A stretch of DNA of 21,281 nt, from the IMG/VR virus record IMGVR_UViG_2671180673_000012; one strand, given 5' to 3'. The translations under genes were made by a program, and so were the position numbers. The stretch comes from a virus (Duplodnaviria > Heunggongvirae > Uroviricota > Caudoviricetes). Under the pieces are notes generated by a model. That model was not told the DNA's origin and searched no databases. It saw only the letters and a program-made list of their open reading frames with translations. The first letter of the stretch is position 1. Each line of letters starts with the position of its first letter. This document shows, piece by piece, positions 4,375 to 21,281 of this stretch.

Positions 4375-4932
4375 TCAACAATGAATTTTTAGCAATTGCT
4401 CCACAGTCATATTTTTAATTGCGCTCCGGTTTACAAGAGTCCATCCTTGTTTCTCCAGATAAAACCGGAAGGTATCCAGGGTGCAGACCATTGCGCCGTC
4501 AGGAACGGTTTCAGTGAATTTGATATTGCCGTGTTCGTCGAGACGGATAACCAGGGTGCGTCCGTCCCCGTGAATCATTTTGTCGGGAGACGGGGCGTTA
4601 TTCTGGCGCAGTTCTGCTTCCATGCGGTCGAACTCAGCAATGTATGCCTCTTTAAATGCAGCGGCTTTTTTGCCAGTGAAGCCCATCACCAGGAAAACGA
4701 AGCCGTTTTTGGTGATTTGGTACATTGGGAGTTTGCGCCCGGTTGAGTCGGTGTATTCGCTCGACACAAAATTGTGCTCAGTGAATTTTGCTGAACAGTC
4801 CAGATTGCGAATTTTATCCAACACTCGTTCGTGGCGTTTGCCAAAGAACTCGGCGATCGCAACAGACGTAGTGACAGCGCGACCATTTTCGATGGTTACG
4901 TCAGGGTGAGAAAGGGTAAGGATAGTAGCCAT
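4375..4932 (-). CDS. rha: Rha-family phage regulatory protein (antirepressor-like)
   Basis: Sequence matches the Phage_pRha pattern (AEFFGKRHERVLDKIRNLD ... FVFLVMGFTGKKAAAFKEAYIAEFDRME). The supplied ORF extends to 5229, but the internal ATG at 4932 has a GGAGG RBS 8 nt upstream and the extension runs through a terminator hairpin. Confidence 0.8.
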   Translation of the reverse strand: MATILTLSHPDVTIENGRAVTTSVAIAEFFGKRHERVLDKIRNLDCSAKFTEHNFVSSEYTDSTGRKLPMYQITKNGFVFLVMGFTGKKAAAFKEAYIAEFDRMEAELRQNNAPSPDKMIHGDGRTLVIRLDEHGNIKFTETVPDGAMVCTLDTFRFYLEKQGWTLVNRSAIKNMTVEQLLKIHC

Positions 4933-5099
4933 GATGGCAGCCTCCGCGATGAATTTGATTAACTCACCACCGAGGTTTTCCACGACCATAAGGGTGGTGA
5001 GACGTACAGGGGTGGAAATACCGGTCATCACGGAACCCGGCCAGCCTTGCGGCTGCCCTGCACGCCCCACCATAATGCGAATGTGGCTGTGCTTAACGC

Positions 5100-5124
5100 A
5101 TAAAAAAACCGCCTGAGCGCGGTT
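5100..5124 (-). terminator. Rho-independent terminator, leftward transcription
   Basis: On the minus strand: 6-bp stem AACCGC/GCGGTT, 6-nt loop, then a run of T; located upstream of the Rha RBS. Confidence 0.5.
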
Positions 5125-5775
5125 ATGCGCCGTGAATGATTTCGGGTTTCCACGCCCGGCACCCGTTTTATGAGGTGCAGGTGCACTATAATTCCACCCG
5201 TTCTGGTTTTCAATAGCTACATTCAACATTTTCTCTACCTTTCATCACCGAAGTGAACTTTGTTGATGCGGTGCCTGGTGCCTCCAGGTGACGTTAACCA
5301 GTTAACAATTAACGTCGGATACAGAGCATTCCCGTTACGCCCGTAAAAGACCGCTTGTTTTAACTGTTCCGCGTGCGCTGAGCCGCATTCACCGCATCAC
5401 AAAATTCACTTTAAAAAGGGCGGCAGAGCAGTCACGGAGTAGAACTGATACCGCCAAAAGTCACCAGAAAATTGATAACAGAGGGCGTTGCAGCGGAGTT
5501 GTCACTTAAGCGTATGGTCAACCTGACAACCCGGTGTCCTCAACGGGGGAAGGAATAACCCCGCCATACTTACCGCCGCGCCATTTCGCGGATTGCCACA
5601 ACCGGAAGCGCACGATCGAATTAAATTTAACGACGACCTATACAGAGAGACTAACTTCTCCGGGCGCTTTCGTGTTATGCCCTGACTTTTCAGGGATATA
5701 TCCTTTTCAGTAAACTGTCAGTGCCGGATTCTTATCCGTGTCCGGCGCACGCACTCTACCTCACCTGTGAATAAA

Positions 5776-6162: not shown

Positions 6163-6314
6163 CAGTCAGTGTTTCTGGTTAACCAGCGACGCGCGCCAGC
6201 TTCAGTTTTAAACGTTTTGCTTCTGGTATACGTCATCGCGGTGAATGTGCCGTCCTGGTTGGGAAACACGCCGTACACCAGAGATTCGTTGTTGCCAAGC
6301 TCGATAGTATCCAT
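6162..6314 (-). CDS. Small hypothetical protein (50 aa), first ORF downstream of the leftward early promoter
   Basis: Hand-translated minus-strand ORF MDTIELGNNESLVYGVFPNQDGTFTAMTYTRSKTFKTEAGARRWLTRNTD; GAGG RBS 5 nt upstream of ATG at 6314; below the ORF-track length cutoff. Confidence 0.35.
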   Translation of the reverse strand: MDTIELGNNESLVYGVFPNQDGTFTAMTYTRSKTFKTEAGARRWLTRNTD

Positions 6315-6385
6315 GCTGACCTCATTTCCCCTTAACGCCGGGTGGCGGAACTAAAACCTACAGCGCCGTGCTGTTCTTGATAGAA

Positions 6386-6414
6386 ATATTAGTAACGCGG
6401 ATATTTTAAGTCAA
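6386..6414 (-). promoter_or_regulatory. Candidate leftward early promoter (pL-like)
   Basis: Minus-strand TTGACT, 17-nt spacer, TAATAT; lies between the repressor-gene terminator and the first leftward ORF. Confidence 0.45.
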
Positions 6415-6511
6415 CAGTATGGCGTATGATATTTTTGATTTGGTAACTATGTAAATGTTTTTTCAAGGGAAAAATATTAGTTATACAGCTGATTTGCAGA
6501 AGTTATGGCAC

Positions 6512-6541
6512 AAAAAAACCGACTAAGACGTCGGTTTTTTT
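6512..6541. terminator. Bidirectional rho-independent terminator downstream of the repressor gene
   Basis: 7-bp stem AACCGAC/GTCGGTT flanked by an A-tract on one side and a T-tract on the other. Confidence 0.6.
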
Positions 6542-6567
6542 GTTGTGGATGGGGTAGTGAGCGGTGG

Positions 6568-7029
6568 CTACTGGTTACGTTTCTTTAGTGCCAGCATGTT
6601 CTCGAAGGCTTCCTCGTAGAGCTTGTTTAGTCCACGTAGCTGGTTAAGGAGTTTGGCTTTTTCTGACGCAGGTAGAATCTCGAAGAGGTTAAGTAACTCT
6701 GCCTGTTCTTCATTGACCAGCCTCCATCCTTTGCCTGAAAAGTTATCATCATAAGTATCTGATGATCTTACATAATTCATTAAGTCTTTAAGGTCTTCTC
6801 GAATGTCCTCTGGTTTTACCTTTAACAGAGCCGCAAATTTTAGCGCAGCGTCGGTATTTACCGGTATCTTGCCGTTCAGATACTGGCTAACGGTGCCTTG
6901 AGATTCGAATCCCAACAACTCAGCCGCCAGCTCTTGAGTCAGCTTCAGCTCTTTTTTTCTTGCATTCCATGCGGCTTTTAAATTCTTGCTCGCTTCTGGA
7001 GTTGCAATCACTTCGCGTGTTTTTTTCAT
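6568..7029 (-). CDS. DicA-like XRE-family HTH repressor (prophage immunity repressor)
   Basis: 153 aa; N-terminal HTH (LTQELAAELLGFESQGTVSQYLNG); C-terminal region resembles DicA as recalled from memory (LPASEKAKLLNQLRGLNKLYEE); transcribed divergently from the Cro-like gene; no S24 peptidase domain. Confidence 0.8.
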   Translation of the reverse strand: MKKTREVIATPEASKNLKAAWNARKKELKLTQELAAELLGFESQGTVSQYLNGKIPVNTDAALKFAALLKVKPEDIREDLKDLMNYVRSSDTYDDNFSGKGWRLVNEEQAELLNLFEILPASEKAKLLNQLRGLNKLYEEAFENMLALKKRNQ

Positions 7030-7035
7030 ACATAG

Positions 7036-7063
7036 AGTTTATTTGTTTTACCAATATTATCAA
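7036..7063 (-). promoter_or_regulatory. Candidate repressor maintenance promoter (pRM-like), predicted leaderless transcript
   Basis: Minus-strand TTGATA, 16-nt spacer, TAAACT; predicted start site falls at or next to the repressor ATG at 7029. Confidence 0.35.
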
Positions 7064-7077
7064 AGATAGTCTGGCTG

Positions 7078-7106
7078 TTGATCTTTAAAATTAGCGGGGC
7101 TAATAT
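7078..7106 (+). promoter_or_regulatory. Candidate rightward early promoter (pR-like)
   Basis: TTGATC, 17-nt spacer, TAATAT, about 30 nt upstream of the Cro-like gene. Confidence 0.4.
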
Positions 7107-7136
7107 TTGCTCGAGGCATAACGTAGAAGGTTGGCT

Positions 7137-7412
7137 ATGAACTTAAGAGACTATTTAAAAGAGAAACATATCACCCAGCTACAGTTTGGGAAGCTAACGG
7201 GTTTATCTCAGGTGCATGTAAGTCGAGTGCTGGGGGGCTATGAAAGATTCAGCCCTGAAAAAGCATTACGTGTTGCTGAAGTAACGAATTTCGAGGTTAC
7301 ACCTCATGAACTCCGGCCTGATATTTACCCGAATCCAACCGACGGCTTACCTGTTGGATTCAAGGCTAACACACCAAATGCATCGGAGTTGATTCATGAA
7401 AATCAGGCATGA
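7137..7412 (+). CDS. Cro-like / YdaS-DicC-type HTH regulator
   Basis: ORF-track entry starts at a TTG at 7131; ATG at 7137 has a GAAGG RBS 6 nt upstream; HTH segment ITQLQFGKLTGLSQVHVSRV; first rightward gene opposite the repressor. Confidence 0.7.
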   Translation: MNLRDYLKEKHITQLQFGKLTGLSQVHVSRVLGGYERFSPEKALRVAEVTNFEVTPHELRPDIYPNPTDGLPVGFKANTPNASELIHENQA

Positions 7413-7821
7413 GCACATCCGCATGGCGATGAATGCCTGGGCGCATCCGGACGGTGAAAAAGTTCCGGCAGCTGAAATAACCCGGGCTTATTTTGAGCTT
7501 GGTATGACGTTCCCGGAATTATATGACGACAGCCATCCGGAAGCCCTGGCTCGCAATACCCAGAAAATTTTCCGCTGGGTGGAGAAAGACACTCCTGATG
7601 CGGTTAAAAAAATTCAGGCGTTGTTACCAGCGATCGAAAAAGCAATGCCGCCTCTGCTGGTGGCCCGAATGCGCAGCCACAGTTCAGCTTATTTTCGGGA
7701 GCTGGTGGAGACGCGGGAACGACTGGTGAGAGACGCTGATGATTTTGTCGCAGTGGCGATCGCTGGTTTCAACCAGATGAATCGTGGTGGCCCTGCAGGA
7801 AATATTGTGGCCGTGCATTGA
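7396..7821 (+). CDS. YdaT-like regulatory protein (possible CII-position regulator)
   Basis: 141 aa starting MKIRHEHI; GGAG RBS 7 nt upstream; overlaps Cro-like gene end by 17 nt; assignment to the YdaT family is from recalled similarity. Confidence 0.55.
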   Translation: MKIRHEHIRMAMNAWAHPDGEKVPAAEITRAYFELGMTFPELYDDSHPEALARNTQKIFRWVEKDTPDAVKKIQALLPAIEKAMPPLLVARMRSHSSAYFRELVETRERLVRDADDFVAVAIAGFNQMNRGGPAGNIVAVH

Positions 7822-7892
7822 CTCGCAATATTCATACCGGATCACTTCCGGCAATTTGTGAGTAAAAAGATTCGGTATCAGAAGAGGTGAGT

Positions 7893-8933
7893 ATGGCTAA
7901 CGCCTGGCTCAGATTATGGCATGACATGCCAAATGACCCTAAGTGGCGAACAATTGCCAGGGTGTCAGGGCAGCCAATTGCAACAGTGATGGCAGTGTAT
8001 ATCCACCTTCTGGTGAGCGCGTCACGAAATGTCACGACATGTCACGGCGTGTCACTACGTGGTCACATTGATGTCACGACGGAAGATTTAGCAAGTGCGC
8101 TTGATGTGACGGAAGAAGTAATTGATTCAATTTTACAGGCAATGCAGGGGCGGGTACTTGATGGAGATTTAATCACCGGATGGGAAAAACGCCAGGTACT
8201 GAAAGAGGACAATGGCAACGTTTCACAAACCGCGAAATCCCCGGCAGAGCGCAAGAGAGCGCAGCGCGAGAGGGAAAAATTACGAAAACAGAATGAGGGG
8301 TGTCACGACGAGTCACGCATATGTCACGACATGTCACGACGAGTCACGACAGATAAAGATACAGATAAAGAATTAAACCCCACACATAACGCGCACGTGC
8401 GCGAGAGTGCTCCGACCAGTGAGTCGAGTGGTACGCCGTTGCAGGCAGCAGAACCTGCATCCCTGGATGGACTGAGCGAACCCATCGGGAAATTTCCGAT
8501 GGTCGATGACTGGCATCCGTCGCCGGATTTTCGACGACGGGCTGCGTTGTGGGGGATGGCTTTGCCGGAGCCGGAATTTACACCTGCTGAACTTGCCGCT
8601 TTCCGGGACTACTGGGCAGCGGAGGGGAAAGTTTTCACGCAGGTTCAGTGGGAGCAGAAATTCGCCCGTCACGTAAATCACGTCAGGGCGCAGGTTAAGC
8701 CAGTCAGCAAGGGGGTAAACCATGCAGCAGCACCAGGTGGCACCGCATCACGGGCAGTTCAGGAAATTCGGGCAGCACGTGAGCAGTGGGAACGTGAAAA
8801 CGGATTTATCAGCGACGGAAACGGTCTGGAAGCTGTGGGAACTCATGGGGGAGGTTTATTCGAACCGCTGGACCCAGAAGAACGGGGCCGCACCTTCGAA
8901 GCTCTGGATTGCCCAGATTGGCGCGATGACTGA
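7893..8933 (+). CDS. Replication initiation protein (O-like position) with DnaT-like C-terminal region; contains iterons
   Basis: ORF-track entry starts at GTG 7887; ATG at 7893 has an AGAGG RBS 5 nt upstream; two clusters of 10-11-bp GTCACGAC repeats lie inside the coding sequence. Confidence 0.75.
   Translation: MANAWLRLWHDMPNDPKWRTIARVSGQPIATVMAVYIHLLVSASRNVTTCHGVSLRGHIDVTTEDLASALDVTEEVIDSILQAMQGRVLDGDLITGWEKRQVLKEDNGNVSQTAKSPAERKRAQREREKLRKQNEGCHDESRICHDMSRRVTTDKDTDKELNPTHNAHVRESAPTSESSGTPLQAAEPASLDGLSEPIGKFPMVDDWHPSPDFRRRAALWGMALPEPEFTPAELAAFRDYWAAEGKVFTQVQWEQKFARHVNHVRAQVKPVSKGVNHAAAPGGTASRAVQEIRAAREQWERENGFISDGNGLEAVGTHGGGLFEPLDPEERGRTFEALDCPDWRDD
8021..8080. repeat. Iteron cluster 1: six direct repeats of (T)GTCACGNC at 10-11 bp spacing
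   Basis: GTCAC(G) cores start at 8021, 8031, 8041, 8051, 8062 and 8073. Confidence 0.6.
8302..8370. repeat. Iteron cluster 2: five GTCACGAC repeats followed by an AT-rich AGATAAAG doublet
   Basis: GTCACG cores at 8302, 8312, 8323, 8333 and 8343; AGATAAAG at 8351 and 8363. Confidence 0.6.
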
Positions 8934-13136: not shown

Positions 13137-13194
13137 TGCAGCGGGTGCTTGAGGCTATCTGTCTCAGGCATGAACACCAAAAGGCAGATAGAGA

Positions 13195-13265
13195 AAAGCC
13201 CCAGTTAACATTACGCGTCCGGCAAGACGCTTAACATTAATCTGAGGCCATATCTATGCTCTACA
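13195..13265 (-). ncRNA. Putative Sok-like antisense RNA region (approximate)
   Basis: Inferred only from hok/sok architecture, where the antisense RNA overlaps the mok-like start region of the leader; boundaries not determinable from sequence. Confidence 0.3.
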
Positions 13266-13312
13266 CACGTAGGTTAGCCTCTTACGTGCCGAAAGGCAAG
13301 GAGAAGCAGGCT

Positions 13313-13468
13313 ATGAAGCAGCAAAAGGCGATGCTAATCGCCCTGATCGTCATCTGTTTAACCGTCATTGTGACGGCACTGGTAACGAGGAAAGACCTCT
13401 GCGAGGTACGAATCCGAACCGGCCAGACGGAGGTCGCTGTCTTCACAGCTTACGAACCTGAGGAGTAA
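13313..13468 (+). CDS. hokD: Hok/Gef-family type I toxin (51 aa)
   Basis: MKQQKAMLIALIVICLTVIVTALVTRKDLCEVRIRTGQTEVAVFTAYEPEE: single transmembrane helix plus conserved RK(D/S)LCE(V/I)R motif; AGGAG RBS 9 nt upstream; the ORF-track entry from 13256 is an in-frame mok-like extension. The hokD/relF assignment is from recalled sequence. Confidence 0.85.
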   Translation: MKQQKAMLIALIVICLTVIVTALVTRKDLCEVRIRTGQTEVAVFTAYEPEE

Positions 13469-13633: not shown

Positions 13634-14284
13634 ATGAATGAAAATCAGTTAGCTCCTTGTTGGGAATTTCAACCTTATCTTGCTGAAAACTATGTTCGCC
13701 ACTTGTTGGCGGAGATCGCTAACGTACTTGAGCAGCTGTACTATCATAAGCACGCATTAGACAGCAACTGGTCTGAAGGTGTAAGGGCTTATGATTGGGT
13801 CAGAAATCATCTTATTCAAAATGAAGATGCAATTCCTGGCCTTGAGATGATTTCCAAGGGGTTGGACTATGTAGTTGCTTTAAATAAAGTTCCGCTACAA
13901 TTTACCAAAGATTGCATTAATAACCCCAAAAAGAAACATCGTCTGCGTCGAAATAAAGTAGAGTATGAGCAGCTCTCATTGTTTGGTGATGTTGAGGCTG
14001 AGCAAGATATTACATGGCGAGTCATAGCTGAGCCTTTTTTATCCGAAGAGGGCGATGGTGAATTAGAGTCCACACTGCCTCGTTGGGAGGTAGCTCTTGT
14101 TGGATTTAATACTTATGGTGCTCAGATTAGTATAGTTTCTCATCAATCTACAGCATCGATGCCGCTTATGCCTCTTGATTATAACACACTCCCTGACGAA
14201 GCGGAGATTAATAAGGTGCCTCTTCGCCGGCGTACGAAGGATAAAGATTTGGATGTGAGCAGTGATGGAACATCAGGTGAATAA
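13634..14284 (+). CDS. Hypothetical protein (216 aa), first gene of the insert; candidate effector/toxin partner
   Basis: Continuous ORF; about 33% GC over the first 60 nt against about 50% in flanking phage genes; no domain recognised by eye; 3' end overlaps the downstream gene by 20 nt. Confidence 0.6.
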   Translation: MNENQLAPCWEFQPYLAENYVRHLLAEIANVLEQLYYHKHALDSNWSEGVRAYDWVRNHLIQNEDAIPGLEMISKGLDYVVALNKVPLQFTKDCINNPKKKHRLRRNKVEYEQLSLFGDVEAEQDITWRVIAEPFLSEEGDGELESTLPRWEVALVGFNTYGAQISIVSHQSTASMPLMPLDYNTLPDEAEINKVPLRRRTKDKDLDVSSDGTSGE

Positions 14285-15368
14285 CTTCACTGAGTATCGG
14301 GGTGATAAGCTCAAACTAGCGAGAATGGCTGTTGGGCTTTCTTGTGAAGAGTTAGCCGAAAAAATTGGCAAGACAAAGCAATTCGTTAGCAAACTGGAGA
14401 AGGGGTGCAGGCCATCGGAGCAATGTCTTGAGTTAATATCTTCAGCGCTTATGATTAAGTCCAGTTTTCTTTTTACTGAACGAAAATACGCTCTGGAAAG
14501 TGATGTCTGCCATTTTCGGAGTAAGAAGTCCAGGACTCAAACGCTGACTAATAGTGTATTGGCCAGGGCTGAGATTCTTAATATTATAATTTCTGCTGTT
14601 GAAGGTGAAATCGAATTTCCTGACGTTAACATACCGGAGCACCCAGGGGCTGAATTACTTACTCCGAATGATATTGAGCGAGTGGCAGAAGATTGTCGCC
14701 GTGCCTGGAATTTAGGTCTTGGCCCTATATCATCAATGGTTAAATTGGCGGAGAGTTTAGGGGTAATCGTTGCGCATGTTACGGGAGTCGATGATCGTGT
14801 TGATGCTTTTACTGTTCACAATAACAGGCCTGTTATCATCAGGAACAATGTTAAAAAAAGCATATGTAGATTTCGCTCTGATTTAGGTCATGAATTAGGG
14901 CATTTAGTAATGCATGAGGGCATAACGACAGGTGATAAACTTACGGAATCACAAGCCGATCACTTTTCGAGCGCCTTATTAGTTCCCAGGTTATCTTTCA
15001 TTAAAGAATTTCCACGAATACGAGGTAAGCAATTCGACTGGAATGCTCTGGTTGAATTTAAACTTAGATGGAAAATCAGCCTTAAAATGTGTATTTATCG
15101 AGCCAGCGCATTAGGCTTATTGACCCAGGAACAGGCAAGAACTGGCTATATGCATCTTAATTCCAGAGGGTATACGAGAGTTGAACCTGGTGATGAACTT
15201 TTGCGCCCTGAAGAACCCGGCATGCTGGCCGAGGCGATTGAAATGCTGGATGATGCAACCTGGCTAAGAATTCTTATGAAAACTGGCTTGAGCCAAGATT
15301 TAATTCGTGAGTTGTTCTCCATCAACAGACCTATTACAAATCCAAGAAATATTTTCCAGATTGTTTGA
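14265..15368 (+). CDS. Fused XRE-family HTH + ImmA/IrrE-family (COG2856, HEXXH) zinc metallopeptidase
   Basis: N-terminal HTH (LSCEELAEKIGKTKQFVSKLEKG); HEXXH motif DLGHELGHLVMHEG in the central region; ATG at 14265 (ORF-track entry starts at GTG 14262). Confidence 0.8.
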   Translation: MEHQVNNFTEYRGDKLKLARMAVGLSCEELAEKIGKTKQFVSKLEKGCRPSEQCLELISSALMIKSSFLFTERKYALESDVCHFRSKKSRTQTLTNSVLARAEILNIIISAVEGEIEFPDVNIPEHPGAELLTPNDIERVAEDCRRAWNLGLGPISSMVKLAESLGVIVAHVTGVDDRVDAFTVHNNRPVIIRNNVKKSICRFRSDLGHELGHLVMHEGITTGDKLTESQADHFSSALLVPRLSFIKEFPRIRGKQFDWNALVEFKLRWKISLKMCIYRASALGLLTQEQARTGYMHLNSRGYTRVEPGDELLRPEEPGMLAEAIEMLDDATWLRILMKTGLSQDLIRELFSINRPITNPRNIFQIV

Positions 15369-15372
15369 GTAT

Positions 15373-15393
15373 ACCCGCTTCGGCGGGTTTTTT
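15373..15393 (+). terminator. Rho-independent terminator (copy 2, same sequence as 13537-13558)
   Basis: ACCCGC-TTCG-GCGGGT hairpin followed by TTTTTT. Confidence 0.7.
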
Positions 15394-15412: not shown

Positions 15413-15442
15413 TTGAAGTTTTGGACGGTGCCAGAATAGAAT
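15413..15442 (+). promoter_or_regulatory. Candidate promoter for the downstream rightward genes
   Basis: TTGAAG, 18-nt spacer, TAGAAT. Confidence 0.4.
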
Positions 15443-15477: not shown

Positions 15478-15699
15478 ATGGACCCCGAACAGGGGGAGTG
15501 CTATTTATCTGGAAGGATTCTGTTGATGAAAATCGAAGAATTACGTGAAATTTTTAGTGAAGATGGCCTCTATGCTGTGCGCGTTGAGAATGGGGGTATT
15601 ACCTACACAGCGTTAATTCCTGATGATCATGTAGTGTTATCTGTTGAGGCATTCATTGAATACTTGGAAAGACTCGGTTTCAAGGTAGTTCGGGAATAA
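15478..15699 (+). CDS. Small hypothetical protein
   Basis: ATG at 15478 preceded by GGGAG; alternative ATG at 15526 has a GGAAGGA RBS 8 nt upstream, giving a 57-aa product. Confidence 0.5.
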   Translation: MDPEQGECYLSGRILLMKIEELREIFSEDGLYAVRVENGGITYTALIPDDHVVLSVEAFIEYLERLGFKVVRE

Positions 15700-15758: not shown

Positions 15759-16031
15759 ATGGCGCATAATTTCAAATTTCGCAATTCTGATTCTGCCTTT
15801 GCCAGCAGGCACGGGTGGCGTTCTCACGCATTCAAATATGACTGGTATCAGCACGATCCCTGTACTGAAGAACAGGCCGAATGGCTGATTCATAACTACC
15901 GCAGACGTGGATATGAGTTTAGGAAAGCCCTCACCCTCGATTATCGTCACTGGATAATCTACGTCAGACTCCCTTATTCCGAACGCCCACCGCGTCCGTC
16001 CCGCACATTCCAGCAACGCATCTGGAGGTAA
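15759..16031 (+). CDS. Hypothetical protein (about 90 aa)
   Basis: ATG at 15759 with GGAG 6 nt upstream (ORF-track entry starts at TTG 15747); stop abuts the next gene. Confidence 0.5.
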   Translation: MAHNFKFRNSDSAFASRHGWRSHAFKYDWYQHDPCTEEQAEWLIHNYRRRGYEFRKALTLDYRHWIIYVRLPYSERPPRPSRTFQQRIWR

Positions 16032-19957: not shown

Positions 19958-20033
19958 GGCCCTTTAGCTCAGTGGTGAGAGCGAGCGACTCATAATCGCC
20001 AGGTCGCTGGTTCAAATCCAGCAAGGGCCACCA
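19958..20033 (+). tRNA. ileZ: tRNA with CAU anticodon, Ile2 (lysidine)-type by resemblance to ileX/ileY
   Basis: Manual cloverleaf: acceptor GGCCCTT/AAGGGCC, D-arm GCTC..GAGC, anticodon loop CTCATAA, T-loop TTCAAAT, encoded CCA. Confidence 0.85.
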
Positions 20034-20040
20034 TCACATA

Positions 20041-20117
20041 CCGCCATTAGCTCATCAGGAAAGAGCGCCAGCCTTCGAAGCTGGTTGCGCGGAGTTCGGG
20101 TCCCCGAAGGCGGTCCA
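20041..20117 (+). tRNA. argN: tRNA-Arg (anticodon UCG) with atypical T-loop and one acceptor-stem mismatch
   Basis: Manual fold: D-arm GCTC..GAGC, anticodon stem CCAGC/GCTGG, loop CTTCGAA, T-loop TTCGGGT, encoded CCA. Confidence 0.7.
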
Positions 20118-20130
20118 TTATCTGTATCCT

Positions 20131-20207
20131 GCGTTGTTAGCTCAGCCGGACAGAGCAATTGCCTTCTAAGCAATCGGTCACTGGTTCGAATCCAGTACAA
20201 CGCGCCA
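20131..20207 (+). tRNA. argO: tRNA-Arg (anticodon UCU)
   Basis: Manual fold: acceptor GCGTTGT/ACAACGC, anticodon stem ATTGC/GCAAT, loop CTTCTAA, T-loop TTCGAAT, encoded CCA. Confidence 0.85.
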
Positions 20208-20246: not shown

Positions 20247-20443
20247 AAATGTCTCACAATTCAGGCGGTTGACTGTTGTCTGGTTTGCGGGGAGTTTGTT
20301 AAAAGAAACTGGCATGGTGAATCCCCCTGTGCGGAGGGGCAATCAGCGAGTAGGTATATGGGATAATCGCGGATTCAGGTGCTGGTACTGAATTCACCGG
20401 GAGGCACCCGGCACCATGCAATGGCACATAGCGCCACTCTCCA

Positions 20444-20465
20444 GCCCCTCTCCGGAGGGGCTTTT
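20444..20465 (+). terminator. Hairpin terminator-like element
   Basis: GCCCCTC-TCCG-GAGGGGC followed by TTTT. Confidence 0.4.
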
Positions 20466-20656
20466 CTGTGCCGGATACATCACAGTTTCTGGAACCTTAG
20501 GTACTACAGTATCAGTCAGGGTGCTATATTTTCAGATGTGATGAAAGCCTGTCAGCAGGCAGGGCGTATCGGAAATGACCCAGTAGAGAAAACGTTGACT
20601 CAGATACCGGTGCTGAGTTACCGGGAAACCGGCATCACATGACCGCTATCCTTCCA

Positions 20657-20772: not shown

Positions 20773-21099
20773 ATGACTAAAAATACTCGTTTTTCCCCCG
20801 AAGTCCGTCAACGGGCAGTCCGTATGGTTCTGGAAAGTCAGAGCGAATATGACTCACAATGGGCGACAATTTGTTCCATTGCTCCAAAGATTGGCTGTAC
20901 GCCGGAGACTCTGCGTGTCTGGGTTCGCCAGCATGAGCGGGATACCGGGGGCGGTGATGGAGGGCTCACCACCGCTGAACGTCAGCGTCTGAAAGAGCTG
21001 GAACGTGAAAATCGTGAACTGCGCCGCAGTAACGATATCCTTCGCCAGGCTTCCGCTTATTTTGCGAAGGCGGAGTTCGACCGCCTCTGGAAAAAATGA
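20773..21099 (+). CDS. IS629-like transposase OrfA (HTH, leucine-zipper region)
   Basis: 108 aa: [19 protein letters not shown] ... [31 protein letters not shown], an IS3-family OrfA pattern. Confidence 0.85.
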
Positions 21100-21281
21100 T
21101 GCCACTGCTGGATAAGCTGCGTGAGCAGTACGGGGTCGGACCGCTATGCAGCGAACTGCATATTGCCCCGTCAACGTATTACCACTGTCAGCAACAGCGA
21201 CATCATCCGGATAAACGCAGTGCCCGTGCGCAGCGCGATGACTGGCTGAAGAAAGAGATACAGCGCGTATACGATGAAAAT
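21096..21281 (+). CDS. IS629-like transposase OrfB, N-terminal fragment (partial, runs off window)
   Basis: -1 frame relative to OrfA, starting in the AAAAAATGATG overlap; reads [30 protein letters not shown]...; no stop before the window end. Confidence 0.8.

Follow-up and report, generated by a model that had tools for sequence, protein, structure and literature searches.

The window analysed here is the whole 21,281-nt stretch, one strand, of IMG/VR record IMGVR_UViG_2671180673_000012 (Caudoviricetes). It carries a lambdoid prophage that is integrated beside ompW and looks complete within the window: integrase, excisionase, replication genes and Q are all present. Three of its genes have the CI/Cro/CII-type layout:

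6568–7029, minus strand: repressor gene, 153 aa (ATG at 7029–7027), with a lambda-CI-like HTH and a DicA/PaaR2-like helical tail
7137–7412, plus strand: Cro-like gene of the YdaS family, 91 aa (Pfam YdaS_toxin and HTH_3; phrog_35, E 2e-25)
7396–7821, plus strand: CII-like gene YdaT, 141 aa (phrog_163, 'CII-like activator')

A sequence-only reading of this DNA had placed a 107-bp gap between a DicA-like repressor gene and a Cro-like gene, and the ORF ends confirm exactly that length (7030–7136). Of 5426 complete E. coli genomes, 180 (∼3%) contain the 1.2-kb immunity region at ≥80% coverage; E. coli ABU 83972 and 042 are among the prophage carriers, and phage Rac-SA53 encodes the same repressor.

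A short repressor related to DicA and PaaR2

The start codon of the repressor is fixed by an in-frame TAA four codons upstream, the next Met being residue 84. Its HTH_3 domain was matched at E 1.1e-9, and the N-terminal domain resembles that of lambda CI (E 2.6e-4 to 8e-4). Relatives with 50–60% identity in the N-terminal domain carry Peptidase_S24 (PF00717), the domain that the sequence-only reading had found missing here. A search for a cryptic copy bore this out: at E ≤ 0.1, Pfam returned HTH families only, with PF00717 absent, and the protein lacks the Ala-Gly dipeptide at which cleavable repressors are cut. Lacking an S24 domain, the repressor cannot be inactivated through the self-cleavage that RecA stimulates.

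Helices are predicted for the C-terminal half. AlphaFold2, run on a 10-sequence alignment, modelled the N-terminal domain confidently and the C-terminal region at pLDDT 42–58. A phmmer search with residues 78–153 against 1.84 billion representatives returned only four proteins, which shows no more than that the C-terminal domain in its entirety is restricted to a small family; relating the repressor to DicA and PaaR2 took profile comparison. Full-length profile alignment (hhalign) gave a probability of 95% for DicA (E 4.7e-8) and of 90% for PaaR2 (E 1.9e-6). Over the C-terminal 42 aa, identity to DicA is 38% (tail BLASTP E 8e-6), and the motif ELLxLFxxLPxxE is common to the tails of all three proteins, so that the description of the repressor as DicA-like holds. 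A score of 35.1 bits against the NCBIfam DicA model NF007257, below its cut-off of 101, makes it a relative of DicA and not an orthologue. RacR was also considered as a relative and ruled out, no similarity being found.

With a single HTH, fewer than ∼160 aa, no S24 domain and no AG dipeptide, the repressor fits the short non-cleavable DicA/PaaR2/Gifsy type. Our literature search found no paper naming this repressor family.

Promoters, operators and terminator

Promoters and start sites at the immunity region are predictions from sequence. The two control regions, one in the gap and one downstream of the repressor gene, contain the following elements:

7036–7063, minus strand: PRM-like promoter (−35 TTGATA at 7063–7058, 16-nt spacer, −10 TAAACT at 7041–7036)
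7078–7106, plus strand: PR-like promoter for ydaS/ydaT (−35 TTGATC at 7078–7083, 17 nt, −10 TAATAT at 7101–7106)
7086–7108: predicted operator OR1, palindrome TAAAATTAGC-GGG-GCTAATATTT over the PR spacer and −10
7050–7074: candidate weaker operator(s) of uncertain assignment over the PRM spacer and −35, CCAATATTATC...
6384–6414, minus strand: PL-like promoter (−35 TTGACT at 6414–6409, 17 nt, −10 TAATAT at 6391–6386), a match in the promoter scan
6384–6406: predicted operator OL1, palindrome AAATATTAGT-AAC-GCGGATATTT over the PL −10
6455–6426, minus strand: second leftward promoter-like site (TTTACA, 18 nt, TATCAT; scan 10/12)
6472–6480, minus strand: third half-site copy AAATATTAG, an exact 9-mer within an element at 6426–6494
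6510–6543, minus strand: intrinsic terminator immediately following the stop codon of the repressor gene

The promoter scan of 1.4 kb returned five promoter-like sites against 2.4 ± 1.5 in shuffles, a count that is not significant alone, so the case for the promoters is made by comparison with PL, the palindromes and homologous loci. PR matches the consensus at 8/12 positions, too few to pass the scan threshold; its alignment with PL is gapless, and its −35 TTGATC is kept in Enterobacter and Hafnia loci. Both divergent promoters proposed by the sequence-only reading, at 7036–7063 (minus) and 7078–7106 (plus), were located in the sequence and are backed by such comparison. Downstream of PL lies a leftward ydfA-like / DicF / Rha / dicB operon. 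The PL/OL copy of the control elements had been overlooked in that reading.

The 23-bp palindrome occurs at only two sites in the window, OR1 and OL1, against 0 expected in shuffles, a test that is partly circular because the pattern was derived from these two sites. OR1 has the top PWM score. Among 17 E. coli variants its outer half-site bases do not change, and all substitutions but one lie in or beside the central spacer. Exact copies of the half-site 9-mer AAATATTAG number three in 21 kb, and none lies outside the two control regions. A search of the gap for repeated half-sites, as the sequence-only reading had advised, thus yielded the OR1 palindrome, but further sites there are weak: a CTAATATT-like element holds the 7050–7074 position in all lineages compared, yet has a poor palindromic partner and a PWM score of only 8–9. 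Each control region has one strong predicted operator, and the candidates overlapping PRM score poorly. Three lambda-style operators could not be assigned in the 107-bp gap, where OR1 alone is clear.

The 73-nt stretch that contains the terminator (6500–6572) folds with an MFE of −22.7 kcal/mol (z −6.8), and with an A-run and a T-run on either side of the stem it can work both ways.

The Cro-like and CII-like genes

The Cro-like gene has a Shine-Dalgarno sequence (GAAGG) 6 nt upstream, with anti-SD pairing of −5.8 kcal/mol, and its product matches solved phage Cro proteins weakly. YdaT is 83% identical to YdaT of CP-933P and matches the PDB entries 3C4R (E 3e-91) and 8BT1 (E 4e-79). The footprinted YdaT site of CP-933P is TTGATT-N6-AATCAA (PMC9986795), and a counterpart lies at the ydaS/ydaT junction:

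7389–7406: predicted YdaT operator, TTGATTCATGAAAATCAG

It has one mismatch to the CP-933P site, is the sole match with ≤1 mismatch in the window (0.12 expected) and sits at the ydaS end, as in CP-933P. This operator would mark a PRE-like region giving a second, leadered repressor transcript. It was overlooked by the sequence-only reading and is added by the present analysis.

A predicted leaderless start for the repressor mRNA

The PRM-like promoter matches the consensus at 9/12 positions in the promoter scan, and its hexamers are weak. The repressor ATG begins 6 nt past the −10 TAAACT, which places the predicted +1 at the A of the ATG (7029). The spacing is identical at lambda PRM (TAGATT-TAACGT-ATG) and at PRM of CP-933P (GATAAT-TACCAC-ATG). 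Across 29 distinct upstream sequences of homologous loci, drawn from several genera, the pattern T-A-x-x-x-T stands equally far from the ATG, the conserved leftward −10 being found in loci of Hafnia, Serratia and Enterobacter; diverged loci have TAAACT, TAAAAT, TAAGAT or TAGAAT, and the 6 nt before the ATG vary. The sequence-only reading had a minus promoter starting transcription at the repressor ATG as in lambda PRM, a placement with which the shared 6-nt spacing and the conserved hexamer agree.

A conventional leader and ribosome-binding site, sought as evidence to the contrary, were not found, nor was a Shine-Dalgarno sequence before the repressor ATG. The 20 nt before it pair with the anti-SD at +1.6 kcal/mol; 90% of random 20-mers from the window pair more strongly, neighbouring genes reach −5.5 to −6.1 kcal/mol, and a homologous S24-type cI with GGAGG reaches −9.3 kcal/mol. 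From geometry, conservation and the missing Shine-Dalgarno sequence, we infer that the maintenance mRNA is leaderless. Such a design in a non-cleavable repressor is less unusual than the sequence-only reading had taken it to be: 5' RACE, N-terminal sequencing and mass spectrometry have already demonstrated leaderless expression of PaaR2, the repressor of CP-933P (PMC8630535).

Alternatively, the repressor mRNA could be leadered, starting at the PRE-like promoter near 7410–7450 or elsewhere in the gap, with the ATG used without a canonical Shine-Dalgarno sequence, for example via ribosomal protein S1 and an A-rich coding start. The YdaT operator at 7389–7406 does imply a leadered PRE transcript that also needs translation, the PRM hexamers are weak, and promoter-like matches arise by chance in AT-rich intergenic DNA. 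Against this, the distance between −10 and ATG stays constant in diverged lineages, two systems with mapped leaderless starts have identical geometry (lambda; CP-933P, PMC8630535), and a lysogen needs a maintenance promoter while YdaT is repressed. We consider a solely leadered message quite improbable and keep the leaderless start as the prediction for maintenance.

Candidate inducers

For a repressor that cannot cleave itself, the sequence-only reading had proposed either the Rha-family protein or an HTH-peptidase as the inducing factor. A third gene is the better candidate:

15526–15699, plus strand: Rem-like ORF, 58 aa, candidate antirepressor (Rem similarity, synteny)
15413–15442, plus strand: promoter of the Rem-like ORF (TTGAAG, 18 nt, TAGAAT)
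15373–15388: terminator ahead of this promoter
4375–5229, in the leftward operon: Rha-family gene (Pfam)
14262/14265–15368: HTH + M78 peptidase gene (Pfam Peptidase_M78/ImmA-like)

The last two are located as in the sequence-only reading, which had overlooked the Rem-like ORF. The first 26 aa of this ORF share 73% identity with K-12 Rem (E 7e-12), and its C-terminal half is dissimilar. The gene order hokD – rem – DUF968 – Q matches Qin, and the promoter and a leader of ∼85 nt are conserved; folding of the leader gave a modest signal (z −1.84). Phage Rac-SA53, which has the same repressor, carries a 58-aa rem that matches over its full length. With dN/dS of 0.24–0.52, the ORF, which RefSeq labels only as a pseudogene fragment, is an intact gene under purifying selection. 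Rem derepresses the DicA-controlled promoter dicBp 165-fold (PMC10448788), and Gifsy repressors of the non-cleavable class are inactivated by small antirepressors (PMC3121763).

We examined co-occurrence in 80 loci, the closest relatives of the query. Among IMG/VR loci with sufficient upstream sequence, short-type Rem accompanied this repressor family in 32 of 41 and long-type Rem in 0 of 6 (Fisher p 5e-4), an association that may reflect shared descent since the loci are close kin and not independent. Nor is the pairing exclusive, as short-type Rem also occurs with RacR (two loci), PaaR2 (one), distant DicA-like repressors and one S24-type repressor.

No LexA box was found upstream of the Rem-like ORF, rha or the immunity genes, so induction may be triggered by something other than the SOS response. 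Allowing ≤1 mismatch, the motif CTGT-N8-ACAG had eight matches against 6.25 expected. These were rejected as SOS evidence; both exact ones lie inside coding regions (14812 and 15860). On one reading, which we offer tentatively, the short Rem would be the cognate antirepressor of this repressor family, the shared role being carried by its conserved N-terminal half and repressor specificity by its variable C-terminal half, and would provide an SOS-independent route to induction.

There may instead be no dedicated antirepressor, with a stochastic or physical-stress switch arising from repressor instability and YdaS feedback, and with the Rem-like gene acting on other prophages or having another role. 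In the DicA/DicC system, dicBp is derepressed spontaneously and by stress (urea, heat) independently of Rem (PMC10448788), and PaaR2 of CP-933P shows bistability and is not induced by mitomycin C (PMC8630535); the occurrence of short-type Rem beside unrelated repressors and the lack of a detected LexA box upstream of rem point the same way. Against this, Rem-type genes are under purifying selection and hold the same position in prophages with this repressor, and the prophage looks complete, retaining integrase, excisionase, replication genes and Q, which speaks for a functional induction pathway. We regard a switch of this kind as rather unlikely, and prefer the Rem-like antirepressor.

Rha fares less well as the inducer, in the role of an antirepressor under translational control by isrK/C4 RNAs, like P1 immI (c4-ant) or Gifsy-1 isrK-anrP. 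In its favour, Rfam matched isrK at 67.7 bits and C4 at 81.9 bits in the 5' third of the Rha ORF, PHROG relatives of Rha are annotated anti-repressor or Ant, and IsrK of Gifsy-1 turns on the translation of an antirepressor-like gene (PMC4825925). The gene, however, belongs to the PL operon, which the repressor silences, so Rha could act only via a hypothetical promoter of its own RNA gene. The protein also lacks the ANT domain of classical antirepressors (Pfam), phages with S24-type repressors have the same N-terminal module, and no Rha-family protein binding a DicA-type repressor was found in the literature examined. We judge Rha an unlikely inducer.

The HTH-M78 protein is a full-length match to RmrA (E 6.2e-105), and the gene upstream, overlapping it at 14262–14284, matches RmrT (E 4.6e-25). 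The protease-domain protein serves as the antitoxin in the RosmerTA defence pair (PMC10440598), and the two genes here form such a toxin-antitoxin pair, inserted next to hok/sok. That this protein cleaves the repressor as ImmA cleaves ImmR in ICEBs1, a role suggested by its Peptidase_M78/ImmA-like domain and HTH, is very improbable given the RmrA match with the RmrT toxin gene alongside, the position of the pair between hokD and rem in a typical accessory-gene slot, and its absence from Rac-SA53, which has the same repressor.

Proposed mechanism

We propose that 6384–7821 is the immunity switch of a lambdoid prophage, and put the probability of the following five-step working model as a whole at roughly 0.7. 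In the lysogen, the repressor would bind the palindromic operators covering the −10s of PR (7086–7108) and PL (6384–6406), shutting off the rightward ydaS/ydaT–replication and the leftward ydfA–DicF–Rha–dicB–recombination operons. Its maintenance would depend on the weak PRM-like promoter and, as geometry and conservation suggest, on an mRNA running from the A of the ATG to the hairpin at 6510–6543; starting at the ATG, this mRNA would be translated without a leader or Shine-Dalgarno sequence. By homology, the YdaS-like Cro analogue would compete for the same 107-bp region, giving bistability. During establishment, the YdaT-like CII analogue bound at 7389–7406 would drive a PRE-like leftward transcript. 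Induction is the least certain step: most likely a small antirepressor would inactivate the repressor, as for DicA and the Gifsy repressors, the best candidate being the Rem-like protein, encoded behind its own promoter ∼8.5 kb to the right of the repressor ATG.

Implications

If the proposed role of the short Rem with its LexA-independent promoter is true, a prophage of ∼3% of complete E. coli genomes would be induced independently of SOS. The N-terminal domain of the repressor and its half-sites also resemble those of the S24-type CI of some Stx2 phages, so non-cleavable and cleavable repressors may share operators, in which case a resident prophage could influence immunity towards incoming Stx phages or their induction.

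Two annotations can be corrected: the 'HTH-peptidase' is probably a defence antitoxin and no component of the switch, and the Rem-like 'pseudogene fragment' is an intact conserved gene. The repressor family is unstudied, yet its control logic can be read almost completely from characterised relatives, and operator and promoter coordinates are now concrete enough for experiments. As a complete-looking prophage in well-studied strains, it is possibly a better model for the Rem trigger than the cryptic Qin or CP-933P.

Comparison with known systems

By published description, Gifsy-1, -2 and -3 share with this prophage short non-cleaved repressors (GfoR, GtgR and GfhR) resembling the CI N-terminal domain, and a small antirepressor in a separate, terminator-preceded transcription unit (PMC3121763). 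Their antirepressors are LexA-controlled, whereas no LexA box precedes the Rem-like gene here.

Lambda has a homologous HTH N-terminal domain, the same PRM geometry and the cI-cro-cII layout with paired PR/PL operators, predicted in our case. It differs in its S24 domain, without which the present repressor is not open to direct RecA-dependent induction, in its three evenly spaced operators, which are not evident here, and in CII, replaced here by the unrelated YdaT.

Qin shares the leftward order of repressor, ydfA (DUF1391), DicF and dicB, and the position of rem between hokD and the DUF968 gene, with promoter and leader conserved; dicA, too, lacks a Shine-Dalgarno sequence. The N-terminal domain of the present repressor, in contrast, is nearer to lambda and Stx-phage CI, Rem has 83 aa in K-12 and 58 aa here with a different C-terminal half, and the place of DicC is taken by a YdaS-type Cro.

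CP-933P, whose sequence we rebuilt from primer sequences and a genome match, has a divergent repressor/ydaS pair with a gap of 97 bp (107 bp here), the 6-nt spacing from −10 to ATG with no Shine-Dalgarno sequence, and a short repressor without S24 and with a homologous C-terminal tail. Its PR promoter and operators likewise have a PL counterpart downstream of the repressor gene (PMC8630535, PMC9986795), and the 83% identical YdaT has its operator at the ydaS end. The differences lie in the repressor and Cro proteins, which have no detectable BLASTP similarity; in the operators, GTTTAGTAA repeats there and AAATATTAG half-sites here; in the paaA2-parE2 toxin-antitoxin pair, which stands behind the repressor there and is missing here; and in the lambda-CI-like N-terminal domain and 13-residue linker insertion of the present repressor. 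CP-933P is cryptic, whereas this prophage looks complete in the window. The switch is built like the characterised switches of lambda, CP-933P and Qin, an ordinary example of a mechanism that is not new.

Prophage context

The 1.2 kb around the immunity region matches the E. coli EcPF7 chromosome at 100% identity; of 5426 complete E. coli genomes, 180 contain it at ≥80% coverage, including ABU 83972 and 042. RefSeq annotates a lambdoid prophage with an integration site adjoining ompW. Its left side runs integrase, excisionase, exonuclease, dicB, Rha, and a DUF1391 gene up to the repressor gene; on the right side come ydaS, ydaT, replication genes, hokD, two adjacent genes without assigned function, a DUF968 gene, rusA, and the Q antiterminator. 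The same repressor, at 99.3% amino-acid identity, is encoded by phage Rac-SA53, where its annotation is dicA.

The window also holds a hok/sok type I toxin-antitoxin locus at 13143-13468 (sok RNA match 117 bits; hokD in RefSeq), three tRNA genes (19958-20204), the sRNA STnc100 (20283-20473), and an ALIL frameshift pseudoknot (21054-21170). Ambiguous bases (N) occupy 17 positions (e.g. 1541, 2001, 16284, 18089, and 19955); 6300-7900 and the Rem-like gene discussed below are free of them.

Promoters and predicted operators

The sequence-only reading had placed divergent promoters in a 107-bp gap between the repressor and Cro-like genes. The ORF coordinates agree with that gap, and both promoters are present in the sequence, with the rightward one under the scan threshold:

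6384-6406, predicted operator palindrome OL1, 23 bp, AAATATTAGT-AAC-GCGGATATTT, covering the PL -10
6414-6386 (-), putative PL: TTGACT (6414-6409), 17 nt, TAATAT (6391-6386)
6568-7029 (-), repressor ORF
7063-7036 (-), leftward, PRM-like promoter: TTGATA, 16 nt, TAAACT; 9/12 in the promoter scan
7078-7106 (+), rightward promoter PR: TTGATC (7078-7083), 17 nt, TAATAT (7101-7106); 8/12
7086-7108, predicted operator palindrome OR1, 23 bp, TAAAATTAGC-GGG-GCTAATATTT, covering the PR -10
7137 (+), ATG of the Cro-like ORF (ydaS)
7389-7406, predicted YdaT operator, TTGATTCATGAAAATCAG

Promoter-like site counts were not significant by themselves (5 vs 2.4 ± 1.5 in shuffles), and independent support was therefore sought. 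Just 3' of the repressor's terminator, the minus strand carries a PR paralogue that aligns with PR without gaps, identity clustering at CTGTTGA (-35) and CTAATATTT (-10); this is the putative PL expected before the ydfA-like/DicF/Rha/dicB operon. Directly 3' of its predicted start, before the DUF1391 gene, lies a terminator-like hairpin (6360-6374, minus strand; ACAGCACGGCGCTGT plus a T-rich tail) that could be an attenuator or nut-like element.

The operator pattern has only two matches in 21 kb, OR1 and OL1, and none in shuffles, a test that is partly circular since the pattern was built from the very sites found. With a half-site matrix the two palindromes score highest (25.2 and 24.2; next 12.0), and all three copies of the exact 9-mer AAATATTAG in the window fall within the PR and PL control regions. 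Support that does not depend on the pattern comes from 17 distinct E. coli gap variants, in which OR1 substitutions lie, with one exception, in or beside the central spacer, and the outer half-site bases are constant. No further operators could be assigned with confidence over PRM.

A short repressor of mixed type

Pfam returned only HTH families for the repressor, in line with the earlier claim that it lacks an S24 peptidase domain. A PDB match to the lambda CI DNA-binding domain (E 2.6e-4) covers its first 78 residues, and this N-terminal domain is 50-60% identical to those of Peptidase_S24-bearing repressors; unlike theirs, its C-terminal half is predicted to be helical and has no Ala-Gly. 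Identity to the K-12 DicA tail is 38% over the last 42 residues, profile comparisons link the protein to DicA (E 4.7e-8, 117 columns) and PaaR2 (E 1.9e-6, 97 columns), and the motif ELLxLFxxLPxxE is common to all three. Only a small enterobacterial family has the C-terminal domain in full. By these comparisons the protein combines a CI-type DNA-binding domain with a DicA/PaaR2-type tail, and we assign it as a new member to the short, non-cleavable repressors known from the Gifsy prophages, Qin, and CP-933P (PMC3121763, PMC10448788, PMC8630535).

The repressor is not DicA itself (35 bits vs a cut-off of 101), and RacR is unrelated by sequence comparison. Our literature search found no paper naming the protein. 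The S24-type CI of Stx2 phages (Lys12581Vzw, NC_049917.1, 1040-1875), whose N-terminal domain is 50% identical to the repressor's, has a conventional GGAGG ribosome-binding site, and the gap 5' of its gene contains apparently similar half-sites, GATATTAGC and GCTAATAAAA, as judged by eye. This comparison suggests that cleavable and non-cleavable repressors have exchanged C-terminal modules.

A predicted leaderless repressor mRNA

Transcription had been predicted to start at the repressor ATG, and this holds up well. Six nucleotides separate the end of the PRM-like -10 hexamer from the A of the ATG, the same arrangement as in lambda (TAGATT-TAACGT-ATG) and CP-933P (GATAAT-TACCAC-ATG), where paaR2 is expressed without a leader according to 5' RACE, N-terminal sequencing, and mass spectrometry (PMC8630535). 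Across 29 distinct homologous upstream sequences from E. coli, Enterobacter, Hafnia, and metagenomic prophages (repressor proteins 68-100% identical) and a Serratia locus (58%), the hexamer is TAAACT, TAAAAT, TAAGAT, or TAGAAT at a constant position, the six bases following it vary freely, and the gap measures 106-107 bp in all homologous loci compared.

Anti-Shine-Dalgarno pairing in the 20 nt before the repressor ATG is only +1.6 kcal/mol; of random 20-mers from the window, 90% pair more strongly. The corresponding values are -0.9 kcal/mol for paaR2, -5.5 to -6.1 for ydaS, ydaT, and the Rem-like gene, and -9.3 for the Stx-phage cI with GGAGG (N-terminal domain of the product 50% identical to the repressor's). 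The start codon is not movable, given an in-frame TAA four codons upstream and a basic N-terminal arm conserved at the protein level. A leaderless repressor mRNA is well founded, but a prediction. Among other repressor genes, K-12 dicA (Qin, 2414-2434) likewise has no Shine-Dalgarno complementarity (+0.3 kcal/mol) and may therefore be leaderless or nearly so; racR has GGAG (-7.3 kcal/mol).

A second, leadered repressor transcript is likely during establishment, because the predicted YdaT operator lies exactly on the ydaS/ydaT junction and CP-933P YdaT footprints on TTGATT-N6-AATCAA at the ydaS end and activates a PRE-like promoter (PMC9986795, PMC8630535). That operator is the sole match in the window at ≤1 mismatch to the CP-933P site (0.12 expected), and the YdaT-like protein is 83% identical to CP-933P YdaT and near-identical to PDB 3C4R.

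Candidate inducers

DicA repression in Qin is lifted by Rem, a small protein whose gene lies 3' of hokD (PMC10448788). The window carries an intact ORF in the corresponding place, 3' of hokD and ahead of the DUF968 gene, with an inserted gene pair before it:

13634-14284, RmrT
14262-15368, RmrA
15373-15388, terminator
15413-15442, promoter of the Rem-like gene
15526-15699 (+), Rem-like ORF, 58 codons

Its product shares 73% identity with Rem over the first 26 residues (E 7e-12), a Shine-Dalgarno sequence is present, and the ~85-nt leader, whose sequence is conserved in K-12 Qin rem, shows only modest folding (z -1.84). In RefSeq just the first 75 bp appear, labelled a pseudogene fragment, yet 67 related loci keep the ORF intact and it is under purifying selection (dN/dS 0.24-0.52, five variants compared). 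Rac-SA53 has a 58-aa rem matching over its full length, and in phages with other repressors the match is confined to the N-terminal part. Among IMG/VR loci with enough upstream DNA, which are not independent, short-type Rem accompanies this repressor family in 32 of 41 cases and K-12-type Rem in 0 of 6 (Fisher p 5e-4); exceptions have short Rem beside RacR, PaaR2, distant DicA-like repressors, and one S24-type repressor. Because of these exceptions and the non-independence of loci, an antirepressor role for the Rem-like protein is plausible, not established. A motif search of the window found no LexA box upstream of its gene; exact CTGT-N8-ACAG matches at 14812-14827 and 15860-15875 are probably not LexA sites, being inside coding regions, at chance frequency, and with GC-containing centres.

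The Rem-like protein, a third candidate that the sequence-only reading had missed, fits known biology better than the two inducers proposed from sequence, which do not hold up well. For Rha, the gene lies inside the PL operon predicted to be silenced by the repressor, and Pfam found no ANT domain in the protein. Rha may nevertheless have a role in induction: isrK and C4 RNAs control access to an antirepressor-like gene of Gifsy-1 (PMC4825925), and the 5' third of the Rha/Ash ORF (4375-5229, minus strand) overlaps Rfam isrK (5102-5178) and C4 antisense RNA (4990-5077), with DicF just 5' of it (5418-5469, minus strand). This layout suggests that RNA regulates the Rha gene in the manner of P1 immI or Gifsy-1, and, given the overlap, the "Ash" part may not be coding.

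The HTH-peptidase near 14265 fares worst, being a full-length match to RmrA (E 6.2e-105) preceded by an overlapping RmrT gene (E 4.6e-25), a pair assigned by these matches to RosmerTA, an anti-phage defence toxin-antitoxin system whose antitoxin is the protein with the protease domain (PMC10440598). The pair is absent from Rac-SA53 despite the same repressor. RefSeq labels the two genes only "hypothetical" and "helix-turn-helix domain-containing".

Comparison with known switches

The useful outputs are corrected annotations and coordinates open to testing, and the locus is possibly a better model for finding what triggers Rem-type antirepressors. It is a previously unstudied example of an already known switch type, and characterised counterparts exist for all its elements: lambda shares the PRM geometry; CP-933P combines a leaderless, non-cleavable repressor with YdaS and YdaT; the DicA-type tail, leftward operon, and Rem are found in Qin; and antirepressor-driven induction is known from the Gifsy prophages.
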